Assembly: GCA_029838215.1 (NCBI GenBank)
Contig: JALGVI010000093.1
Coordinates: 1-11,808, forward strand
Length of the DNA: 11,808 nt
Reading direction: 5' to 3'
From: Candidatus Helarchaeota archaeon
GTDB taxonomy: Archaea; Asgardarchaeota; Lokiarchaeia; Helarchaeales; RDOG01
Shown here: positions 1-11,257 of the stretch, piece after piece
How positions within the stretch are numbered: the stretch's first letter is position 1
Layout: each line of letters starts with the position of its first letter
Made by a program: the position numbers and the translations under genes
The notes under the pieces: model-generated
Database searches by the model: none
What the model was told of the DNA's origin: nothing
The model's input: the letters and a program-made list of their open reading frames with translations, nothing else

Positions 1-335
1 CGGACTGATTTTTTAGGAATTGTCTTTTTCCTATTACCTATGAGTCCCTTGCTTTTAATGAACGTGTAAAAAAATTCCCCGGGTTCTCGTCCTTCTCGAA
101 TCACTTCATGCTTGTAATGGGGGAGATTTTTGAGAATTTTTAATTTTCCAGCCCAGTTCGCAGCGACATAACGATGGTAAAGGCGGGATTTTTTTCCCGC
201 CCATATCCATATTTTCTTCACGCCCTTGTCGATTATTAAATAAACTTCCGTGGTTTCAAAGAGGTTTTCAGGTCGGGGCACTATTGATTCTCCGCTTATC
301 CGATAGATGTATTCATCATCGCTGTCCACGCTCAT
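1..335 (-). CDS. Gelsolin-like domain protein (Asgard gelsolin family); C-terminus truncated by window edge; not in supplied ORF track
   Basis: Manual translation from ATG at 335 (in-frame GTG at 353 also possible) is open to the edge for 111 codons: MSVDSDDEYIYRISGESIVPRPENLFETTEVYLIIDKGVKKIWIWAGKKSRLYHRYVAANWAGKLKILKNLPHYKHEVIREGREPGEFFYTFIKSKGLIGNRKKTIPKKSV. It matches the gelsolin repeat pattern L-x3-[DE]-VYLID...IWIW-x-G-x2-S...AA-x2-A...[VI]-x-EG-x-EP-x2-F. Starts 25 nt after the CheW-CheC stop, same strand. Confidence 0.85.
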   Translation of the reverse strand, partial: MSVDSDDEYIYRISGESIVPRPENLFETTEVYLIIDKGVKKIWIWAGKKSRLYHRYVAANWAGKLKILKNLPHYKHEVIREGREPGEFFYTFIKSKGLIGNRKKTIPKKSV

Positions 336-360
336 GTGCACTCGACCACTCACGTATATT

Positions 361-1683
361 TTATTCTTCTTCGTAGAATCGTGCCAATTCTTCAAGTAAT
401 ACTTCGAGCGTTTCCGTGTCCGGTATAAACAAGAAGAAACCTTCGATTTCTTTTTCTTTAATTATCACCTTGGTAGTAATGACCAGAGAGAGATCTTGGA
501 GGAGTTTTATTTCATCTTTGAGAATGTGAAATAGCCTTTTTGGTGTTTCGATGTTAATATCAGGAGGTTCTGTCATTAACATGAATCCCAATAGATTTCC
601 TATTGCACTGGTATAATGACTTCCCAAAATGTTTCCTACTTCACTCATTGCACTTAAATGCAGTTCTGGAATGTCGCCGGTGGACTTAATGCTTTTAGGA
701 GCTATTTTTTCAGAGTCGCCAAGAAGAATTGTGACTAACGTGAGAAAATCTTGAATTCTGAAAAATACCAGAACCGTTGCTCGTGTCTTGCCCGTGACGT
801 GACTCCACGAAATGAACATTTTTTCATTCTTTTTTGTAAGACGCTTGCTGAATTCATTTATTTCAAGCATCTCTACTGAGGGTATGTTAATATCAACCCT
901 TTGATTTATCATTTTGGCAAGGGCATTTGCTGCATTTCCAGCACCGATGTTTCCGATTTCCCTCAAGGCATCCTTTTGAATCTCTGATAATTTGATTTGT
1001 TGCAATTCTCTTGCATCTTGTTCCAGTTTGGTAACAACTTTTTGGACTTTTCTACTTGTTTCCTTCTTTCTGCTTGAAGATGACGTGGGTTTGGACTTTT
1101 CTGGTGGGGATGCTCGTTGCTTTGATTTTGATTTTCCACTTTCTGCTCGCGACTTTACTTCGGGGCGGTACTCTGGCACGTTTGGAACCAATTCTGGAAT
1201 CATTGGTTCGGTATTTTCGCCAGCAACGTTCATGGATGTTATCAAGGATTCTAAATCTAAGAGAATGTAGGTTTCATCATTTAAAACGGCGATGGATTTT
1301 ATGTAATTCCAGTCAATGTCTGTTTCGATAATTGCATCTTTTTCGCCAAACAAGGAAACCGGGAGTTCTCGGACACCAATTACGGAATCCACGAGCAATC
1401 CAATATTTATGCCCTCAAATTTTAAAAGAAGAATCGGTAATCCATCTATGTCCACTTGAGTTTCTTTGACTTCGCTAATTTTGTGTTTTAATGAAATTAT
1501 TGTATAGATTTCATTTCTAATTTCAATGATTCCAACTAAATATTTCTCCGACAATGGTATGTGAATTATTTCATTTTTTGGAATGTATATTTCTGTTATG
1601 TCTTTTATTTCAAATAGATACTTTTCATTTCCGACTTGAATCATTATCACGTTCAAAGTATCAACCGTCTTGCTTTCCATCAA
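361..1683 (-). CDS. cheC: CheW-CheC fusion protein (CheW-like aa ~9-150, K/S/P-rich linker aa ~151-230, CheC phosphatase aa ~231-440)
   Basis: C-terminal half has both CheC catalytic motifs: D238-x3-E242-x2-N245...P268 (DALREIGNIGAGNA) and S344-x3-E348-x2-N351...P374 (SAMSEVGNILG). N-terminal half has CheW hallmarks (IHIPLSEKYLVGIIEIRNEI, IGLLVDSVIGV, YILLDLESLI). Start may be TTG 1683 or ATG 1680; SD-like GGAGATG at 1696-1690. Confidence 0.9.
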   Translation of the reverse strand: MMESKTVDTLNVIMIQVGNEKYLFEIKDITEIYIPKNEIIHIPLSEKYLVGIIEIRNEIYTIISLKHKISEVKETQVDIDGLPILLLKFEGINIGLLVDSVIGVRELPVSLFGEKDAIIETDIDWNYIKSIAVLNDETYILLDLESLITSMNVAGENTEPMIPELVPNVPEYRPEVKSRAESGKSKSKQRASPPEKSKPTSSSSRKKETSRKVQKVVTKLEQDARELQQIKLSEIQKDALREIGNIGAGNAANALAKMINQRVDINIPSVEMLEINEFSKRLTKKNEKMFISWSHVTGKTRATVLVFFRIQDFLTLVTILLGDSEKIAPKSIKSTGDIPELHLSAMSEVGNILGSHYTSAIGNLLGFMLMTEPPDINIETPKRLFHILKDEIKLLQDLSLVITTKVIIKEKEIEGFFLFIPDTETLEVLLEELARFYEEE

Positions 1684-2621: not shown

Positions 2622-5600
2622 TCAACTTATCATGTATGATTCTAATTCTGCGAAACTTGTTTCTTCGCGTCCTTTACTTTGTATATAATAACGAATTTCC
2701 TTCTCTTCGTATGGAGGGAGTGCTTGGATGTTAAAGGAGATACTCAAGGCGTTCTCTTCTTTATCCTCTGAAGTTGAATATTTCAGGTTTGAAGAAACAA
2801 TTTCAAAATTTTTAGGCAACGAATCCGTGATGTTTACATCTTTCACGTCAATATTTGACTTGTTGTTAACCAATATGCTTATGGCAAATTCGTTGACGGA
2901 TCTGCCTGGGAAGATTTCCTTGCTGATTTCGATGGAACGTCTCTTGTGTATTATCATTAATTCGGGTTCTTCCTCTTGAGACAATTCGTGCTTGACCGTG
3001 ATGAAACCATCTATGACCATTCCATCACGAGATTCAGGGTAATATGAATTAATCTTGAGTGGAAAATGATATTTCTTTTTATAATCGGGTTTTATTGCCT
3101 TTATTGGATACTTGATTTCAATGCTTTCATTTGCTTTCAAGAAAAGGTCCGGATCCAATTTTTTAAGATTCAAGAGAATTTCAACTCGGTGTTCAATCGT
3201 GGGATCATCATCAGGTGGAGATACCCTGAGCTCAAAATTCTTTGTATAAGGAAGACCCGTTGAAAGCCGAATCTGGTATTGTGAAGGATCTAGGACAGGA
3301 GCAAAATCAATAGGTAAGGTTTCTTCGATTATTAGACCCGCCAAAGTGGCAGAACCAACATTTTTCACCATTACAGAATTACCGATTTCTGCTTCTTCAA
3401 AAGAATTAATTTCCGTTTTTAAGAATTTTTTCTCTAATTGAAAATCTACAATATCAAAAACATCTTCGCCAATCATCGAATTTATGATAGACCGTTTCTT
3501 AATTTCGTGCGTGATTGTATAATTCAACTTGCGAAGAAACCTCGGTTCGCTTTCATCCTCAACTTCCCATGAATCTGTTGCGAAATTCTCGCCCGGCAAA
3601 AGGATTTTTCTTTTATTCTGGTCCGTGAAATCGACGTCAAGGTATGTTTGAGTTTTGGATTTATTTAAGACTGTTATTCTTTTTAATTCCATGTTAAATT
3701 CGCTATTATTCTTGAAATTTAAGGAACATTCCCATTTATTTGGTTCTGTTTCCTTTTCTTTTTTCTTTATGGCATGTCTAACATGTGAAAAGGCAGAGCA
3801 TTGCTCAATTTTCGTGCCCGATAACGTGTCATTCTTTAGGATGCACGAAAGTTCAATCTCTCCTGTACCAATAAGTTCTTTCTTCTTGGGAAATACTTTA
3901 ACGAAAATGTTGAGTTGCTTTTCTTCATTAGGTCTTATGGCAGGAATCGACCAAATTACTCTTTCAGATTCATATTTAAAATCTAAATTATATCCTGAAT
4001 TACCCTCAAATTCATAAAACTCTTTTGAAAAATGTTTCGATAGTGTGACTTCTTCGATCATTGAAGCAGACCGATTCTTCAGTATTATGGTGTATTTTAA
4101 AAGATTTTCCCTGTTAAAAATGAGTATATTTTTAGTCTTAGGAATTTTTCCAGATGCTCTCTTAGCTTCTTCCTCTTCCCGTGCTTTCTTGATATCGTCA
4201 TCGATCTTGATGAGATTTTTTATTCTAAACACATAATCTGTCAGACCTGCATCTTTAGGAACTTGCTTGATTAATTTTTTATTAGAAACAAGAAGCTCAA
4301 TTAATGACATGTACCACTTTTCGATTTCGGCATTATACCGTTCAATTTTTTCTAGCCATTCTTCGATGGCTTGAGCTCGTGTATTAGCATTCAATTTCTG
4401 AAGTTTCTCCAAGCTTTCCGTTAATTCCCCTTCTGGATTTTTAATTTTTCCTGAGAAATACTTTGTCAAGATGGTCTTGTACCAATTTACATGATTGATG
4501 ATCATGCTATCTTTTGGAATGGCATCTTCTCGTGCGTATCGTAATTTTGACTCGACTTTTACGGCTTTTTTAAGGGATTCTTCTTTTTGTTTCCGTAATT
4601 CTTCTTCCTTTTTCTGTAAGAGTTCTTTTTCTTTTCGTAACTCTTCTTCTTTTTTGTAAATTTCCTTCTCTTTTTCCTTTATTTCTGTTTCTTGCTTATC
4701 CAACTTTTCTTTTTGTTTTGATAGCGTTTCTTTGAGTTTTTGTAAACCGCCTTCTATCTTTTGAATTTCTTTTTGTTTCTTGAGTCCCTTTTGTCTGCTC
4801 ATTTCTTCCTGTTTGAATATGGCATCTTTTTGAATTTTTAACGTATTTTTCAGTTCACGAATCTTTTGGTCCCGTTCTTTGACTTCTTTTTCCGACTTCA
4901 TTATATTTTGATTTATATCTTTGATTTCTGCATTTATTTTTTCAATTCTATCCTGAATGTTTTTTACTGCATCTTTGAGCTTTTTATTCTTCTCATCTTC
5001 TTCAAGTTCTTGATTCTTCTGTTTCAAAAGTTGTTTTTCCTGCTTTAATGCCTGTTCTTTCTGTTTCCTTACATCTTTCTGTTTTATGATCTCCGACTTG
5101 ACCTGATCACGTTTTTCTTCTTTTTTCTGTATCTCTTTTTCTTGTATTGCAAATTCTTCTCGTTTTTTCAATCCTTCTTTCTTGATTTTTTCATCTTGTT
5201 CGCGAATACTTTTTTGATTTTTGAGCTCACGTTCCCTTCTTTCCTCTTCTTGTTCGATTGCTTCTTCCTGATTTTTAATTTTTTCCAAAGCCTTCCTGGC
5301 TTTTTCTTTCTGAATCAAGAGTTTCTCTTTTTGTTTTCGCAAGGTATCTTCATTTTTACGGACTTTATCCATTTGGTTTAAAAATTCTTCTTCTTCAGGA
5401 GTAAGAGATGATTTTTTGGATGATTTTTTCTTTATGGCGAGAATTTTTAAAGGACGTAAGGCGCTATCCCCTGAAACTTGTTCTGAAACGACCTTAGTTT
5501 CCTCTAAATCAAATATAGCGTGTTTTATTATGAGCTTAAGGAGCTCACCCCTACTATTTAACTCTATTTTATCATATTCTTGGATGAGCTCGTTAATAAC

Positions 5601-6284
5601 ACCTGTTACTTTTGTGGTATTTGTCTTTAAACCTCGTTGAACCATCTTTTTCTCTTGAACGGTTAGAGACTCAATTTTTTCCACTTTTTCTCTTGCAGGA
5701 GAATTAGTTAATTTGAAAATTTGATCTATGGCTGTTTGGAATCCCGGTTCCAAAATCCACTTTCTAGCTTTCTCTCTCCAGTCTAATTTCTGCTTTTCGG
5801 GTTCCCTGAATAGATCCTCCTGACTGATATAATCAAATTCTCGATTTAGAAATTCTATTTTTTCCGAAACCGAGATTGGATCTTGCAAGTCCTCTGTTTT
5901 AACCAAATTATAATCCAAATTCTTACTCGTGTTTGGCTCCAAGTTGCCAATTTTTACATTTTCGCCCAATTTTAAATCAACGTTTTCATTTCCCGTGAAA
6001 GTGATGTTGGTATCCCAAATGCGATCTTTTCTTGACCCATTTACGATCCGAATAAAACCCGTTCCTTTAATTTCGGATTTCTTTCCATCTTTGTAATGCT
6101 TGAAATTAATTGCTTCTTCAACAAACAGTTGTAGGTTCGTGGATTTTTCGATGATTTCGGATGTTTTAAATTGTTCCACCGAAACCTTTTCATCCATTTT
6201 AACTGAAGTTTTGAGAGGCATTCCTAAAATATTAGGAGAAAGACTTAATTCCAATTCTTCATGATTGATACGCTTGAAACCCAT
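2622..6284 (-). CDS. Large modular protein: split mu-homology-domain-like beta-sandwich, central long coiled coil, C-terminal Ig/DUF11-like beta-sandwich domains
   Basis: 1220-aa ORF with SD GGAGTGA 6 nt upstream. aa ~49-147 and ~717-835 align by eye, in order, to the two parts of the adaptin mu C-terminal domain (LFVEEAIN..DG......G; EP....LDYNL....P.SV; LKYTIILK; SERVIWSI....EEKQL; TLSGTKI). aa ~298-582 is K/E/Q-rich coiled coil. aa ~946-1205 carries KNVGSATLAGLIIEETLP and NKSNIDVKDVNITDSLP strand motifs. CDS is certain; fold assignment is moderate. Confidence 0.65.
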   Translation of the reverse strand: MGFKRINHEELELSLSPNILGMPLKTSVKMDEKVSVEQFKTSEIIEKSTNLQLFVEEAINFKHYKDGKKSEIKGTGFIRIVNGSRKDRIWDTNITFTGNENVDLKLGENVKIGNLEPNTSKNLDYNLVKTEDLQDPISVSEKIEFLNREFDYISQEDLFREPEKQKLDWREKARKWILEPGFQTAIDQIFKLTNSPAREKVEKIESLTVQEKKMVQRGLKTNTTKVTGVINELIQEYDKIELNSRGELLKLIIKHAIFDLEETKVVSEQVSGDSALRPLKILAIKKKSSKKSSLTPEEEEFLNQMDKVRKNEDTLRKQKEKLLIQKEKARKALEKIKNQEEAIEQEEERRERELKNQKSIREQDEKIKKEGLKKREEFAIQEKEIQKKEEKRDQVKSEIIKQKDVRKQKEQALKQEKQLLKQKNQELEEDEKNKKLKDAVKNIQDRIEKINAEIKDINQNIMKSEKEVKERDQKIRELKNTLKIQKDAIFKQEEMSRQKGLKKQKEIQKIEGGLQKLKETLSKQKEKLDKQETEIKEKEKEIYKKEEELRKEKELLQKKEEELRKQKEESLKKAVKVESKLRYAREDAIPKDSMIINHVNWYKTILTKYFSGKIKNPEGELTESLEKLQKLNANTRAQAIEEWLEKIERYNAEIEKWYMSLIELLVSNKKLIKQVPKDAGLTDYVFRIKNLIKIDDDIKKAREEEEAKRASGKIPKTKNILIFNRENLLKYTIILKNRSASMIEEVTLSKHFSKEFYEFEGNSGYNLDFKYESERVIWSIPAIRPNEEKQLNIFVKVFPKKKELIGTGEIELSCILKNDTLSGTKIEQCSAFSHVRHAIKKKEKETEPNKWECSLNFKNNSEFNMELKRITVLNKSKTQTYLDVDFTDQNKRKILLPGENFATDSWEVEDESEPRFLRKLNYTITHEIKKRSIINSMIGEDVFDIVDFQLEKKFLKTEINSFEEAEIGNSVMVKNVGSATLAGLIIEETLPIDFAPVLDPSQYQIRLSTGLPYTKNFELRVSPPDDDPTIEHRVEILLNLKKLDPDLFLKANESIEIKYPIKAIKPDYKKKYHFPLKINSYYPESRDGMVIDGFITVKHELSQEEEPELMIIHKRRSIEISKEIFPGRSVNEFAISILVNNKSNIDVKDVNITDSLPKNFEIVSSNLKYSTSEDKEENALSISFNIQALPPYEEKEIRYYIQSKGREETSFAELESYMIS
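4581..4655 (-). repeat. Imperfect 42-nt (14-aa) tandem duplication in the coiled coil (KKEEELRK twice)
   Basis: aa 544-551 and 558-565 are identical (KKEEELRK). The DNA copies differ at synonymous sites. The period equals two heptads. Confidence 0.75.
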
Positions 6285-6337: not shown

Positions 6338-8431
6338 TTAAGTGCTAATTTCTTCAACTTGTAAATTTTCGGTTTTTCGGAGTCTTTGGGACATTATTCC
6401 CAAAACATCAATTATCAAACATATGGAGCCATCTCCCGTAATTGTAACGCCCGAAATGCCCCTTAATCTGGAAAATTTCGAGGCAATTGGTTTGATTACG
6501 ACTTCCATCTGCTGTTTTAATCCATCTACGACCAAGATTGCATCGTTATTTCTTCCATTATTACACCAGATCGCTATTTTCGATGTTCCTTGCAATTCGG
6601 ACTCTTCATTTGATTGGTTACTCAACTCAAATATCTTATTCAACCAAATAACGGGAACTAATTTGTTGGACACTTTATAAAATTCGCTACCCTTCACGTA
6701 TTCTATCATTTTCCGATCAAAGAATGAAATTTTGTTGATATTTTCAGTCGGAATGGCGAAAAGATCTCCTGCCACGTCCACGAATTGTGCCTTAATTATT
6801 GCTCTAGTAAATGGAACTGATAAAATGAATCGTGAACCCACATCTTTTTTTGACATGATGGTCAAGGAACCACCCAAGTCACGTATCTTTTCGGAAACGA
6901 TTGCCAGTCCCATGCCCCGACCTGAAACCATGTCTACACCTGATAGCGTCGAGAAACCAGGAGACAACAATATTTGATGAAGAGCCTCATTGCTTAATTC
7001 CATTGCTTCTTCAAGTGAAAACAATTCTTGTTCGACAATCTTGTTTCGGATATCGTCGTAATTAATTCCTCTTCCGTCATCTTCTACTTCTATGAATACA
7101 GACCCCGCTTGTTGAAATGTTCTTAGTCTCACGATTCCCATGGGGTCCTTTCCTTTTTTCTTTCGCACGCTTGGGGTTTCTATCCCATGATAAATGGCGT
7201 TTCGGAGGAGATGTAGCATTGGTGATGAAAGTTCTTCCAGAATCTTCCGATCCAACTCTACAGATAATCCTTCTAAAATAAATTCTACTTGTTTTCCGTA
7301 TTCTTTCGCAAGATCACGTACCATTCTTCGATATCTTCTGAATGTAGACCCAACTTTCACTAATTTCAATTGAAAAATGATCTCTTGGATTTCGAGAAAC
7401 AACTTATCCATTTTCGTAAAAAGCCTGTTCGCATCCCAAAGTTGTTTTTCTTCAAGAATTTGATTAACCTGATTTTTTAAGATTATTAATTCTCCGAAGT
7501 AATTCATCAACCGTTCCAGAACTTCAATATCCACCTTAATGTCTGAAATTCTTTCGTCATCGTCGATACTGCTCATTCTTACACTGGTATTTGTCATGAA
7601 TTCTTCTTGAATGGAAAGGTCACTAAATTGACTCTTACCTGTTGCTTCGGATTTCCGTGATTTCGGTTCTTTTTTCTGATATTTCTGCATGTTCGTTTGA
7701 GATAATAGTTGATCGGGCGATGTTTCTGTAATGGCGAGGTTTTCAATTTCCAAGATTTCTTCTAATATGGTCGCAATGGTCTTGTCATCTTTTTCCGTAA
7801 TGAAGTATAATGAAAAGTCTGAACCATATTCTCCCATTTGCAGGATATCGGGATCGGGTTCACTATAGATGATATGGCCGATCTCGTTTAATGCTCTTAA
7901 AATGATGAATAATCTTACTTTTTTAAACACGCAAGTAGAGAGAATTTTGATATAAATCTTGTAGAACTTCTTATTTTTCTTATTTGCGATGAACTTTAAT
8001 TCATTTGGATCGAGAGGGGTTATCAATGCCTCTTCATCTTCGATCTCGAAATTATCAAACGCTTTTTTGGTGTTATTTAGTAATTCTTCATCCAAATCTT
8101 TAAAATTACCCTTCTTGAATTGTTTCAGCTTCGTGCGAAGCGTATCAAGGCTTGAAAATAATAAATTCACGAAATCTTCGGATTTTTCCTTTAATTCTTC
8201 ACTTTCTTTTGCCTTGTTTAGAAACGTTTCAAAGTGATGGCAAAACTGGGAGAGATTTTCGAGTCCAAACATCCCAGTCAACCCTTTTAACGTGTGAAAC
8301 GCAAAGAACAATTCATTTACAGCTTTAATATTTCCTGCACTTTCTTCAAAAGCCAAAATGGAGTCCTCTATATTTTGAATTAGGTCTTCAGTTTCGCTCA
8401 AGAAGAGTTTTGTATCTTCCTTACTAGGCAT
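6338..8431 (-). CDS. cheA: Chemotaxis histidine kinase CheA (P1-P2-P3-P4-P5)
   Basis: HPt motif FHTLKG (H46), P2-like segment, dimerisation IKVDIEVLERLMNYFGELII, N-box HLLRNAIYHG, G1 EDDGRGI, F/G2 PGFST..SGRGMG, C-terminal CheW-like domain ending GVTITGDGSICLIIDV. SD GGGGT 8 nt upstream. Confidence 0.97.
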   Translation of the reverse strand: MPSKEDTKLFLSETEDLIQNIEDSILAFEESAGNIKAVNELFFAFHTLKGLTGMFGLENLSQFCHHFETFLNKAKESEELKEKSEDFVNLLFSSLDTLRTKLKQFKKGNFKDLDEELLNNTKKAFDNFEIEDEEALITPLDPNELKFIANKKNKKFYKIYIKILSTCVFKKVRLFIILRALNEIGHIIYSEPDPDILQMGEYGSDFSLYFITEKDDKTIATILEEILEIENLAITETSPDQLLSQTNMQKYQKKEPKSRKSEATGKSQFSDLSIQEEFMTNTSVRMSSIDDDERISDIKVDIEVLERLMNYFGELIILKNQVNQILEEKQLWDANRLFTKMDKLFLEIQEIIFQLKLVKVGSTFRRYRRMVRDLAKEYGKQVEFILEGLSVELDRKILEELSSPMLHLLRNAIYHGIETPSVRKKKGKDPMGIVRLRTFQQAGSVFIEVEDDGRGINYDDIRNKIVEQELFSLEEAMELSNEALHQILLSPGFSTLSGVDMVSGRGMGLAIVSEKIRDLGGSLTIMSKKDVGSRFILSVPFTRAIIKAQFVDVAGDLFAIPTENINKISFFDRKMIEYVKGSEFYKVSNKLVPVIWLNKIFELSNQSNEESELQGTSKIAIWCNNGRNNDAILVVDGLKQQMEVVIKPIASKFSRLRGISGVTITGDGSICLIIDVLGIMSQRLRKTENLQVEEIST

Positions 8432-8462: not shown

Positions 8463-8858
8463 TTATTTTTTACCTTTTTTTGATGGTTTCATTAAATTGC
8501 GGTCGATAACTTCAAAAATTTGTTCGTCCTTAAATGGTTTGATGATAAAGTCTTTTGCTCCTTTTTTTGCAGCCTCCATTACGAGCGTTTCTTGACCCAA
8601 TGCCGAAACCACGACAATTTTCGCGCTTTTATCAAGCTCAATGATTTTCTCGATTGTTTCAATACCACCCTTTTCAGGCATGACTAGATCCATCGTTACA
8701 AGGTCTGGTTTCAGTTTCATGTATTGAGCAATGGCTTCATTGCCGTTGGCGGCTTCTCCAACGACTTCGACTTTATCGATCTTTTTAATTATATTTTTGA
8801 GCATTGTTCTCGTGAACTGTGCATCATCTACGACTAAAATTTTTTTAATTTCTGCCAT
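8463..8858 (-). CDS. cheY: Chemotaxis response regulator CheY (stand-alone receiver domain)
   Basis: ILVVDD, phospho-acceptor in VTMDLVMP (D57), VSALG, FIIKPF all intact; located between cheW and cheA. Confidence 0.96.
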   Translation of the reverse strand: MAEIKKILVVDDAQFTRTMLKNIIKKIDKVEVVGEAANGNEAIAQYMKLKPDLVTMDLVMPEKGGIETIEKIIELDKSAKIVVVSALGQETLVMEAAKKGAKDFIIKPFKDEQIFEVIDRNLMKPSKKGKK

Positions 8859-8881: not shown

Positions 8882-9412
8882 TTAAAGTTGGTGAATCAGA
8901 TCATCCTGCATTGAATTTTGCTCGGCTTCGGTAAGGATTTTTTTCAAATCCAGCCAAATTCGTGGATTATCCTTGAATTTCACGATTCCTCTAATATATC
9001 GAGCATCCGCACTCGTACGAATAATGGGATTCAGTCCAACGATGTCATTTACGCTGACGTGAACAACGTTAATGATCCGATCGACAAGAAACCCAACGTT
9101 TATTCCATTAACGGTAACTATGATGATGTGTTGTTTTATATTCTCATCATTTGAATCCGCAGATTCCTTAATTTTAACTTTTTTATGCTCATCGAGCTTT
9201 AATTTCTTGTTTAAATTTAAAACATGAACTATTTCTCCCCGATAATTGAAAATTCCATCAATATAATCCAAGCTTTGTGGAAGTTTTCTGATTTGCCCTG
9301 CGAGAACGATTTCCTTGGCGTCGTGAAGATCAATTGCAAATTGTTCACCATTAACTTCCATTAGTATCAGGGAGATTTGATTTCGCGTTTCATTCAATAT
9401 TTCTTGAGACAT
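8882..9412 (-). CDS. cheW: Chemotaxis coupling protein CheW
   Basis: FAIDLHDAKEI, LPQSLDYIDGIFNYRGEIVHVLNL, VGFLVDRIINV, YIRGIVKFKDNPRIWLDLKKIL are canonical CheW motifs. SD-like AAGGAAGTG 5 nt upstream. Confidence 0.96.
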   Translation of the reverse strand: MSQEILNETRNQISLILMEVNGEQFAIDLHDAKEIVLAGQIRKLPQSLDYIDGIFNYRGEIVHVLNLNKKLKLDEHKKVKIKESADSNDENIKQHIIIVTVNGINVGFLVDRIINVVHVSVNDIVGLNPIIRTSADARYIRGIVKFKDNPRIWLDLKKILTEAEQNSMQDDLIHQL

Positions 9413-9435: not shown

Positions 9436-10272
9436 TTAAATTTTGAAATATTGTTCTAAAATATCATCAAATGAATCAAATACGGCAACATCGCCGAAAA
9501 AATTTTCAATTTCTTCCTTGAATTTTTCTATGAATAAATCTGCCACGTAATACATGTATCTTTTAAGTAAAGGGGTTAATTTACAAACTAAATATACAAA
9601 AATGATTTCTTTTTTTACAACTGTATAAAAAATATGGTTTCCAAAATTGATTTCCTTGAGTTTTGCTCCCGTGTCTTTTCCAATTATTTGTTCGGACATG
9701 GAAAAAATGGCGGAGATAAAACCTGCAATCAATGGTTCATCAACTTCGTTCACTAAAGTCCTCGAAAAGAATGGTATTCCCGTTTTACTGAGGATGTAAA
9801 TGGCCTTGACACCACCAATGCGAGGAACTATTATCGTTTCCTCACAAAAATCTCGAATTTTCGATAGCGAAGAATTCGCACGAAAAAGACTGCGTATTTT
9901 TCTTGCATGGAGATATAATCGGGAATAATCCCCCGTATCTCCTTTATCAAACATGTAAATGGCTATTAATTTTTCACCTTCTGAATTCTCAAAATAATTC
10001 ACGTATATGGTGAAATTGTCCAGGGGAATGAAAGAAATCTTGTGGTCATCGGACTTGAATTCTTGCTTGAAGAGTTCCAAGATGTTCTGAATCATGGGAA
10101 TGTCAATTCCTTTTTGAAATACCACGTTGAATCCTTTCGTAAAATTTGGTAACAAGATTTTTACCAATCCAAACCCCATGACTTCTAAAGTTCTTCCAAA
10201 CTTGGAAACCGTCTTCATCAATCCTTCTGTTTCGTGAATTTTATTTGTACTTGCCATTTTTTTCGACTCCAA
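9436..10272 (-). CDS. Longin-domain protein, probably two tandem longin-like domains
   Basis: aa 153-278 (VKAIYILSKTGIPFFSR...DEPLIAGFISAIFSMSEQI...LKEINFG...IIFVYLV...F..EIENF.GD...FDSFDDIL..YF) follows the sigma/mu-adaptin and Asgard longin pattern. aa ~29-150 has a predicted beta-beta-alpha-beta-beta-beta-alpha-alpha order compatible with a second longin. True start may be ATG 10257 (GGAG 10 nt upstream) rather than TTG 10272. Confidence 0.75.
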   Translation of the reverse strand: MESKKMASTNKIHETEGLMKTVSKFGRTLEVMGFGLVKILLPNFTKGFNVVFQKGIDIPMIQNILELFKQEFKSDDHKISFIPLDNFTIYVNYFENSEGEKLIAIYMFDKGDTGDYSRLYLHARKIRSLFRANSSLSKIRDFCEETIIVPRIGGVKAIYILSKTGIPFFSRTLVNEVDEPLIAGFISAIFSMSEQIIGKDTGAKLKEINFGNHIFYTVVKKEIIFVYLVCKLTPLLKRYMYYVADLFIEKFKEEIENFFGDVAVFDSFDDILEQYFKI

Positions 10273-10357: not shown

Positions 10358-11257
10358 TCAGGATTTCCCTTTGGCATCATCTTCTTTTTCGAGACGTAGT
10401 GTTGATTTTAGATTCTCTGCCAATTCACTTAAACGACTTGCTGTTGCCGTAATTTCTTCCATTGATGCCGTTTGTTCTTCCGCTGAAGAACTGATTTCTT
10501 CCATTGCCGCAGACGTTTCTTGACTTGAGGATAACGCACCTTCAAGATCGGTTGTAATACCACTGATTAATTCCACCGTTTGTTCTATTCGGGTAATGAC
10601 ATCATAAACTCTCGAACTAGATTTAAGAACTGTTGATTTGGATTCTTCTGCGATGCTCGCGTTAAGAGCCAATAAATTCGTCTGTTCCGCAATATTTGTT
10701 ATGACTTCCATGACACCGCGTATGTTGTCCGTAGAAACCTTGACTTCCGTTGATAATGCATTGATTTGAGCCGCCGCCGCGCTAATGTCCGTCAACGATT
10801 TGACTTGGTCTTGGGTACTTGCTGAAACCTCTTGAGTTGTTTGTGAGATTTCCTCTGCTGAAGCATTTACTTCATTTGCACTAGCTGCCAACTCTGCTGC
10901 CATATTTGCAACACTAACGCTTGCATCCTGTCCAGCCATTACAACTGTAGATATTTTTTTCTTAAAGTTTCTAACCAGCTTAATTATTAACCAAATTGCG
11001 ACAATTATGAAGCCAACTCCCGGTGGAATCGTAATTATCGTGACAAATAAGTCATTATGCATCGTGCCAACATCAAAGATGACAAGGACAACTAAGATTG
11101 CTATTGCTGCTAACATTCCTGCTGCAATTTTAAATTCTTCAGATTTATAATCTCTTCCTAAAACAAAGTAAAAAACCAAAATCAGGAGCGGGATAAAGAT
11201 AGCCACTAATATGTAAGTGAAGCTAGGATCAAGATATAGTTGCAAATTACTCACCAT
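10358..11257 (-). CDS. Methyl-accepting chemotaxis protein with 3 predicted TM helices and an in-frame loss of the conserved hairpin tip (possible decoy or pseudogene)
   Basis: Hydrophobic segments at aa ~13-33, 43-61, 70-94. MCP motifs ELAASANEVNASAEEI, IAEQTNLLALNASI and EEQTASMEEITATA are present, but NASI joins directly to AEES with the usual EAxRAGExGRGFAVVAxEVRxL missing. Confidence 0.85.
   Translation of the reverse strand: MVSNLQLYLDPSFTYILVAIFIPLLILVFYFVLGRDYKSEEFKIAAGMLAAIAILVVLVIFDVGTMHNDLFVTIITIPPGVGFIIVAIWLIIKLVRNFKKKISTVVMAGQDASVSVANMAAELAASANEVNASAEEISQTTQEVSASTQDQVKSLTDISAAAAQINALSTEVKVSTDNIRGVMEVITNIAEQTNLLALNASIAEESKSTVLKSSSRVYDVITRIEQTVELISGITTDLEGALSSSQETSAAMEEISSSAEEQTASMEEITATASRLSELAENLKSTLRLEKEDDAKGKS

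Follow-up and report, generated by a model that had tools for sequence, protein, structure and literature searches.

The first 335 nucleotides of the DNA analysed here, an 11,808-nucleotide stretch from a Candidatus Helarchaeota archaeon (assembly GCA_029838215.1, contig JALGVI010000093.1; hereafter the window), encode on the minus strand the N-terminal part of a gelsolin-fold protein that we call che-Gel, and comparison with related genomes reveals that its gene is a fixed member of a specialised chemotaxis (che) operon of Asgard archaea. In the protein, a single ProGel-like gelsolin domain, which lacks the canonical Ca2+ sites, is connected by a disordered linker to a conserved coiled-coil-type helix of ~40 residues. 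Its family is compact, strongly conserved and confined to Asgard archaea, and the window adds a divergent variant of both the operon and the protein. Our literature searches found no paper describing a gelsolin-type gene in an Asgard che operon.

The first-pass annotation of the window had proposed, from the letters alone, an open minus-strand frame reaching from an ATG at 335 to the edge, and orthologue matches identify this frame as a real gene. It is uninterrupted from ATG 335 to base 3 (111 residues within the window) and contains the strings quoted in its favour, namely VYLIIDKGVKKIWIWAGKKS, EGREPGEF and a basic stretch, KSKGLIGNRKKTIPKKS. Orthologues in the genomes of relatives match the window protein with E values of 7e-32 and 5e-29, and a metagenomic orthologue of 220 amino acids (P0002) does so with an E value of 1e-24 and 57% identity in the domain. 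The window forms the beginning of contig C69 in an assembly comprising 3.6 Mb in 170 contigs (94% complete, 6% contamination). The first 114 nt of another of these contigs, C110, are identical to the reverse complement of window positions 1–114. Exact overlaps of 114 nt are common at contig ends of this assembly, as expected of a de Bruijn graph, and C110 is the sole partner of the window's end. Joining C69 and C110 produces one open frame of 226 codons, of which the first 111 lie in the window (1–335, minus strand) and the remaining 115 plus the stop on C110 (bases 115–460). The joined protein aligns with orthologues through to the conserved C-terminal helix, and the metagenomic orthologue, whose gene is likewise followed by cheR, aligns with the C110-encoded part. 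We consider the join sound because the exact overlap is unique, the joined frame is open, and both the orthologue alignment and the order with respect to cheR agree with it. The first-pass annotation had rightly placed the rest of the protein outside the window and had left further domains unknown; the extension now resolves this part as a low-complexity linker and one long helix, with no further globular domain.

The position of che-Gel among chemotaxis genes is constant, and this constancy is the firmest outcome of the analysis. On C110, cheR starts 5 nt after che-Gel and is followed by cheB, cheD, cheC and a Ras-family GTPase gene, while the constant upstream neighbour is in the window a gene for a CheW–CheC fusion protein of 440 amino acids (361–1683, minus strand; Pfam CheW 9e-20, CheC 5e-19). 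A locus scan with one genome per species, covering 185,579 species, yielded 35 loci, all from Promethearchaeota and one of them on a closed chromosome. In all 35 genome loci, and in seven further contigs (L003, L008, L009 and L029–L032 among the contigs), che-Gel lies inside a che run in the same order and on the same strand. A CheW/CheC gene is its immediate neighbour in 31 of the 31 loci with enough upstream DNA, and its fixed place is between this CheW/CheC-domain gene and cheR, cheB or cheD. Four long contigs, labelled as Hod-, Thor-, Hermod- and Lokiarchaeia (L029–L032), carry the same co-oriented run: Upstream it comprises genes for a longin/Roadblock-like protein of ~270 amino acids, cheW, cheY, cheA, a DUF11-like protein of ~669 amino acids, an orphan of ~284 amino acids, a CheW–CheC–CheC protein and che-Gel itself; thereafter follow cheR (missing in the Thor contig), cheB, cheD, cheC, a Ras/Arf-like GTPase of ~319 amino acids and a REC-CheB-like gene, which the contig end cuts in the Thor contig. 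In most other lineages the CheW–CheC gene encodes 659 amino acids with the domain order CheW–CheC–CheC, whereas the window variant has a single CheC unit. The membership of the che system that had been claimed for the gene is thus upheld by gene order. Among 151 sampled genomes of the phylum, two have the che-Gel family (E ≤ 1e-20) and 11 the CheA dimerisation domain, which implies that Asgard archaea have at least two kinds of che system, one of them marked by this family.

To assign the fold of che-Gel, we combined sequence comparison with structural modeling. When searched against the Protein Data Bank (PDB) with phmmer, the window protein matched the Thorarchaeota protein 2DGel3 (7c2h, 3e-7), CapG (1j72, 5e-7) and ProGel (7c2f, 2e-6), followed by villin (3.5e-6) and 7whf (8e-5), with Heimdall- and Loki-type 2DGel proteins among the matches; a profile built from 45 family members matched ProGel 7c2f with an E value of 1.3e-7. 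The AlphaFold2 (AF2) model was built on a 46-sequence alignment and represents not the window protein itself but its Thorarchaeota orthologue P0018 (52% identity). Its predicted local distance difference test (pLDDT) score is 82 overall and exceeds 90 over residues 1–111 and 144–182, the latter corresponding to the C-terminal helix. The modelled elements (strands at 10–14, 17–20, 31–36 and 41–46, a helix at 52–67, a strand at 75–80 and a helix at 86–96) follow the gelsolin order of strands and helices and agree with the gelsolin fold, in which a long helix packs on a central sheet and a short C-terminal helix follows. Foldseek ranked ProGel (7c2f_B) as the top match of this model (E 2e-6, TM 0.71, 28% identity), and the 48 matches with E ≤ 1e-3 consist without exception of gelsolin, villin, adseverin or CapG domains; many of these structures were determined on actin, those of actin-bound Asgard gelsolins included. 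The model supersedes a single-sequence AF2 prediction for another orthologue (L009), which reached a pLDDT of 51 and was confident in the C-terminal helix only. Transferred to the window protein by phmmer, AF2 and Foldseek, the gelsolin-homology domain spans residues ~9–95 (window positions 51–311, minus strand) with four strands, the long helix, a strand and a short helix. The domain proposed by the first-pass annotation is hence recovered by PDB-sequence matches, by the profile match and by the predicted fold of P0018, and on this sequence and model evidence we regard the gelsolin fold and homology of che-Gel as established. The comparison with Pfam Gelsolin (PF00626), in contrast to the significant matches with the sequences of gelsolin structures, stays below threshold: The window protein scores 16.2 bits (E 0.009) at a gathering cut-off of 21, and P0018, a typical family member, has no Pfam match at E ≤ 0.05. 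Because the gathering threshold is not reached, every database copy is named 'hypothetical protein', and a whole gelsolin subfamily is missed by Pfam/InterPro-based counts of Asgard actin regulators.

A glutamate that opens the long helix of gelsolin serves as a ligand of the type-II Ca2+ site. The window protein had been read as carrying S-R-L-Y-H in place of S-x-x-D-E here, and the alignment confirms the replacement of Glu by His: S-R-L-Y-H aligns with the S-x-x-D/x-E of 2DGel3 and CapG, His54 (codon 174–176) takes the position of the Ca2+-ligand glutamate, and this histidine is invariant in 45 aligned family members. The strand aspartate of the type-II site, Asp36, is kept in che-Gel, and the full combination of strand Asp and helix Glu is not present. 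ProGel, which has a lysine at the His54 position, is also devoid of a type-II site, so that this site does not define the fold (PMC7444086). One-domain Asgard gelsolins are reported to lack Ca2+ sites, and one of them, 1DGelX, severs actin without Ca2+ (PMC7444086). Of the earlier suggestion that the protein is possibly Ca2+-independent, the loss of the ligand glutamate is seen directly, in line with the Ca2+-independent ProGel and 1DGelX, and Ca2+-independent action of che-Gel can reasonably be inferred from the analogy with these two proteins.

The family to which che-Gel belongs is narrow in both taxonomy and architecture. A profile search over 5.8 billion proteins identified at least 249 protein clusters; the best 120 of these all have E < 1e-61 and lengths of 174–220 amino acids, none of the 120 carries a name or a Pfam domain, and their organism labels, where given, are all Asgard (Loki-, Thor-, Hermod-, Hod- and Promethearchaeota) or plain 'archaeon'. 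An exhaustive search of 50%-identity representatives gave 18 at E ≤ 1e-30, none of them longer than 205 amino acids and therefore no fused forms among them; a search for longer forms returned just the 220-residue P0002 and nothing of 386 residues or more, and thus no fusion to a Che domain that would provide a Rosetta-stone link. Nearly all positions of the long helix SRLYHRYVAANWAGKLKI (residues 50–67; window positions 135–188, minus strand) are invariant in the family alignment: S50, R51, L52, H54, R55, Y56, A58, A59, G63, K64, L65 and K66 are near-invariant across Loki-, Thor-, Hermod- and Hod-type genomes. The almost fully invariant long helix implies a very conserved partner; Lokiactin is 72–93% identical among the relatives searched. 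In the C-terminal helix, the polar set E..E......YS..H...R is invariant or nearly so across classes. The basic stretch KSKGLIGNRKKTIPKKS after the domain (6–56, minus strand) occurs in the copy of this genome alone; elsewhere in the family a conserved NYPGxSR motif takes its place. Within the basic stretch, NRKKT (27–38, minus strand; residues 100–103) resembles the LKKT/LRRV core of WH2-like actin-binding motifs such as those noted between the domains of 2DGel, a likeness that is a weak lead because the rest of the family does not share it. When placed in a tree together with further Asgard gelsolin domains, the che-Gel sequences form one group (support 93/96). Its sister is a gelsolin-plus-helix paralogue of ~182 amino acids (L010, 99–3244; also L011 and L012), which passes Pfam Gelsolin with 24.4 bits and has an aspartate at the His54 position; its gene directly follows two Roadblock/LC7-like genes and precedes a FIST-domain gene, in host genomes without CheA.

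The transcriptional arrangement leaves room for a sub-operon. The spacer between the cheW–cheC stop and the che-Gel ATG measures 25 nt in the window (336–360, minus strand), and an AT-rich TAAAATATA straddles the cheW–cheC stop codon (363–355, about −24 from the che-Gel ATG). A scan of positions 1–900 for sigma-70 promoters and intrinsic terminators, the sigma-70 model being uninformative for an archaeon, found no terminator-like site in the spacer. In orthologous operons the gap before che-Gel amounts to 81–123 nt, more than any other gap of the run in the four loci for which genes were called. A conserved box, AGAATATCCAAAT, lies 54–63 nt upstream of the che-Gel ATG and is followed by an AT-rich TATA-like sequence in 10 of 32 orthologous loci (L058, L059, L063, L066, L070, L082, L084, L085, L088 and L089); it is absent from the 25-nt spacer of the window. 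Downstream, the frames of che-Gel and cheR abut or are 5–12 nt apart in four of the five loci with both ends read. Given the large gap before it, the box in 10 of 32 loci and the near-abutting cheR, che-Gel may head its own sub-operon, and the box could be a promoter or regulator site in front of a che-Gel–cheR–cheB unit.

The remaining genes of the window, all on the minus strand, belong largely to the same run. A conserved orphan of 292 amino acids (1718–2596) has no Pfam family and a conserved position: It stands between cheA and cheW–cheC in all long orthologous loci, with ~284 amino acids elsewhere, and its protein-atlas neighbours are PD-(D/E)XK or restriction-endonuclease-like clusters with scores of 0.83–0.86, which are weak leads. 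Next to it, a DUF11-repeat protein (2622–6284; Pfam and synteny) is expanded in the window lineage to 1220 amino acids, compared with ~669 in the Hod-, Thor-, Hermod- and Loki-type contigs. Domain matches identify CheA with the order Hpt–P2–dimerisation–HATPase–CheW (6338–8431), a CheY-type receiver (8463–8858), CheW (8882–9412) and, at 10358–11257, a short protein of 299 amino acids with the signalling domain of methyl-accepting chemotaxis proteins. The conserved run is headed by a longin/Roadblock-like protein of 278 amino acids (9436–10272), assigned by weak Pfam matches (Fuz_longin_1 E 0.013, Robl_LC7 E 0.073); in the protein atlas it groups with Asgard proteins in a cluster of 355 members, whose weaker neighbours are of the Roadblock/longin type, and it heads the run in other lineages, too. 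At the other end, on C110 (L004, 3936–4943, plus strand), the Ras-family GTPase of 335 amino acids (Pfam Ras 2e-39) has a 165-residue N-terminal extension with a weak, sub-threshold resemblance to the Roadblock-fold MAPKK1_Int/LAMTOR3 (E 0.021), and its gene ends the che run both in this genome and in 20 orthologous loci out of 35, a set that includes loci truncated by contig ends. Beyond the run, C110 (5543–14598, minus strand) encodes, co-oriented, a KaiC/ArlH-like ATPase (229 amino acids), a helix-turn-helix protein, a stand-alone receiver and an open reading frame of 2050 amino acids.

We then asked which motility machinery this che system could address. No CheF (PF04283) was found in this genome (94% complete) or in the 151 genomes of the phylum, and che-Gel itself has no match to this family. 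A search of this genome for archaellin likewise found none; of the 151 sampled genomes, a single one (G162) has a clear archaellin, and G162 has CheA but not the che-Gel family. Archaellin, CheF and T2SSF also gave no match in five further carriers of che-Gel, including a closed chromosome. Among CheA-positive Asgard genomes without the family, four of five have strong T2SSF genes. The absence of archaellum and CheF is not general in Asgard archaea, since a 2026 survey reports genomes that encode both (PMC13705601). This genome holds on C23 (L092, 695–7884) a divergent pair consisting of a T2SSE ATPase (733 amino acids) and a weakly T2SSF-like membrane protein (525 amino acids). Genes for a TFIIB-like protein, a small Ras/Arf-like GTPase and a protein weakly matching folliculin-C lie nearby. 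We rejected this pair as a specific che output: The T2SSE-type ATPase does not track the che operon, since 26 of 31 relatives have it and most of these relatives lack CheA. Also present in the genome are genes for a Lokiactin-type actin (441 bits against Pfam Actin) and an actin-related protein, and three further gelsolin-domain genes. L. ossiferum possesses chemoreceptor arrays and che genes (PMC9834061), and both this organism and a Hodarchaeales isolate crawl by Lokiactin-dependent protrusions; in the same work five gelsolin homologues co-precipitated with Lokiactin, and the paper does not mention chemotaxis (PMC13716822).

A comparative analysis with characterised proteins and pathways places che-Gel closest to ProGel of Thorarchaeota (PDB 7C2F; Akil et al. 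2020, PMC7444086), its best structural and profile match. Both have a single gelsolin/cofilin-type domain, both are devoid of the Ca2+-ligand glutamate (lysine in ProGel, histidine in che-Gel), and both share a similar helix pattern, xLFxxxMxxxxAxKL. ProGel differs in being a bare domain (94 amino acids in the crystallised chain) with very weak binding of G-actin and no reported che context, whereas che-Gel extends the domain by a linker and a conserved coiled-coil helix, shows far stronger sequence conservation and occurs as a fixed part of the che operon. With respect to function, the best analogy for a one-domain gelsolin that gains activity through a C-terminal helix is 1DGelX, also from Thorarchaeota, in which one gelsolin domain is followed by a predicted coiled-coil extension and which severs and nucleates actin independently of Ca2+, with a dissociation constant (Kd) of 7.7 uM on rabbit actin (PMC7444086). 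The architecture of P0018, with domain, linker and a helix at 144–182, resembles the 'domain X' arrangement as far as the published description of 1DGelX allows comparison. Unlike che-Gel (226 amino acids, most relatives 174–205), 1DGelX migrates on gels close to actin, so that it is far larger than 226 or 184 amino acids, and no che link has been reported for it.

At the level of pathways, the Frz system of Myxococcus xanthus directs a Che-type phosphorelay to a polarity module of the Ras-like MglA and the Roadblock protein MglB, and thus to cytoskeleton-dependent surface motility rather than to a rotary filament (PMC3441718, PMC2907295). The Asgard operon also contains a Ras-like GTPase and longin/Roadblock-like genes; Frz, in contrast, is bacterial, includes no gelsolin and does not have its components in one operon with che genes. 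The likeness is one of logic. Archaeal CheF (PF04283), which connects phosphorylated CheY (CheY-P) to the ArlCDE switch of the archaellum (PMC7534055), resembles the role proposed for che-Gel as a lineage-specific small protein that joins a bacterial-type che system to the local motility apparatus. CheF and che-Gel are unrelated in sequence and fold, and CheF, archaellin and a Pfam-level ArlJ were not found in the carriers searched.

Our preferred interpretation, to which we assign a probability of roughly 35%, is that che-Gel physically links the Che machinery to actin, either as an output or as an anchor. The gelsolin domain would bind Lokiactin in a Ca2+-independent manner via its invariant long helix, and the C-terminal helix would dimerise che-Gel or dock it on a helical partner of the chemosensory apparatus. 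As an output, che-Gel might locally change filament dynamics; as an anchor, it might place receptor arrays on actin filaments. In a bolder version, which we consider unlikely, the Che phosphorelay would steer actin-driven crawling or the growth of protrusions through che-Gel: CheY-P or a CheC-type partner would control the access of che-Gel to filaments, where the signal would meet Lokiactin. Actin binding is inferred here from sequence relationship to actin-binding gelsolins, and a partner of the helix and control by CheY-P are postulated on the same tentative footing. Several observations weigh against a link to actin. The G1 contacts I103 and V106, which we take to be the apolar actin contacts of gelsolin, would fall on N60 and G63 of che-Gel. 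For ProGel, the nearest relative with a solved structure, the affinity for G-actin is negligible (Kd ~337 uM), and gelsolin-fold domains that do not bind actin exist, for example in Sec23 (PMC7444086). Pfam does not recognise the family, as set out above, and the window copy is its most divergent member (longest branch, 0.69; NYPGxSR lost). The genome samples consist of kin, and metagenome-assembled genomes are incomplete. This genome keeps the divergent T2SSE ATPase and the weak T2SSF-like gene, and the ATPase occurs in four of five other carriers. Finally, other conserved non-che genes of the operon could be the output: The longin/Roadblock-like protein, the Ras-like GTPase with its Roadblock-like extension, the DUF11-type protein and the orphan of ~285 amino acids are fixed in most loci and are equally good or better output candidates than che-Gel. 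With four such genes fixed in the same operon, the designation of che-Gel as the best candidate effector in the first-pass annotation is only partly supported: The fixed place in the operon speaks for it, and its preference over the Roadblock-like/Ras GTPase and the longin-like protein was overstated.

An alternative to which we assign the same probability as to the link with actin is a repurposed gelsolin fold without any role at actin. The protein would then be an adaptor or scaffold internal to the Che system, bridging for example the CheW–CheC(–CheC) phosphatase, CheR/CheB/CheD or the receptor array, and would be an analogue in role, not by ancestry, of archaeal CheF or of accessory proteins such as CheV. 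This would fit the perfect adjacency to the CheC-domain gene and the position almost directly on cheR, the conservation of the family far beyond that of ordinary Asgard gelsolins together with its invisibility to Pfam, the invariant polar residues of the C-terminal helix (Y-S..H...R), which look like a specific docking site, and the presence of other, canonical gelsolin paralogues elsewhere in every genome. It is opposed by the nearest sequence and structural relatives, all of which are actin binders, and, as weak evidence, by the failure to find a fusion to any Che domain; moreover, we know of no Che protein with a gelsolin fold. That che-Gel is instead an ordinary actin regulator which shares the operon just to be co-expressed and has neither a physical nor a signalling connection to Che appears quite improbable. 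Its own promoter is possible in view of the largest gap of the operon and of the upstream box, but a neutral association would not outlast such divergence: The place is fixed in 35 of 35 loci from several Asgard classes, on the same strand and with the same neighbours, and both genomes with the family in the 151-genome sample also have CheA. Hardly credible, lastly, is the explanation that the window copy is decaying or an assembly artefact, that is, a gene cut by the contig end and completed through a false graph edge to C110. The long branch, the lost motif and the 6% contamination of the assembly might suggest this; however, the overlap is exact, has a unique partner and a length recurrent in the assembly, the joined frame of 226 codons is open and retains the conserved residues of the C-terminal helix, the invariant residues of the domain are kept, and the genes downstream on C110 are those predicted by synteny.

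Asgard archaea were recently found to crawl by Lokiactin-dependent protrusions (PMC13716822), and some possess chemoreceptor arrays (PMC9834061). A gelsolin-fold protein fixed in the che operon provides a specific, testable hypothesis for where chemical sensing meets actin in the closest relatives of eukaryotes. If che-Gel indeed served in steering, it would represent a prokaryotic chemosensory pathway with a eukaryote-type cytoskeletal output; if it did not bind actin, it would still extend an archaeal chemosensory system by a new accessory component with a eukaryote-type fold. We therefore propose che-Gel as a concrete but unproven candidate for a link between chemical sensing and the actin skeleton.

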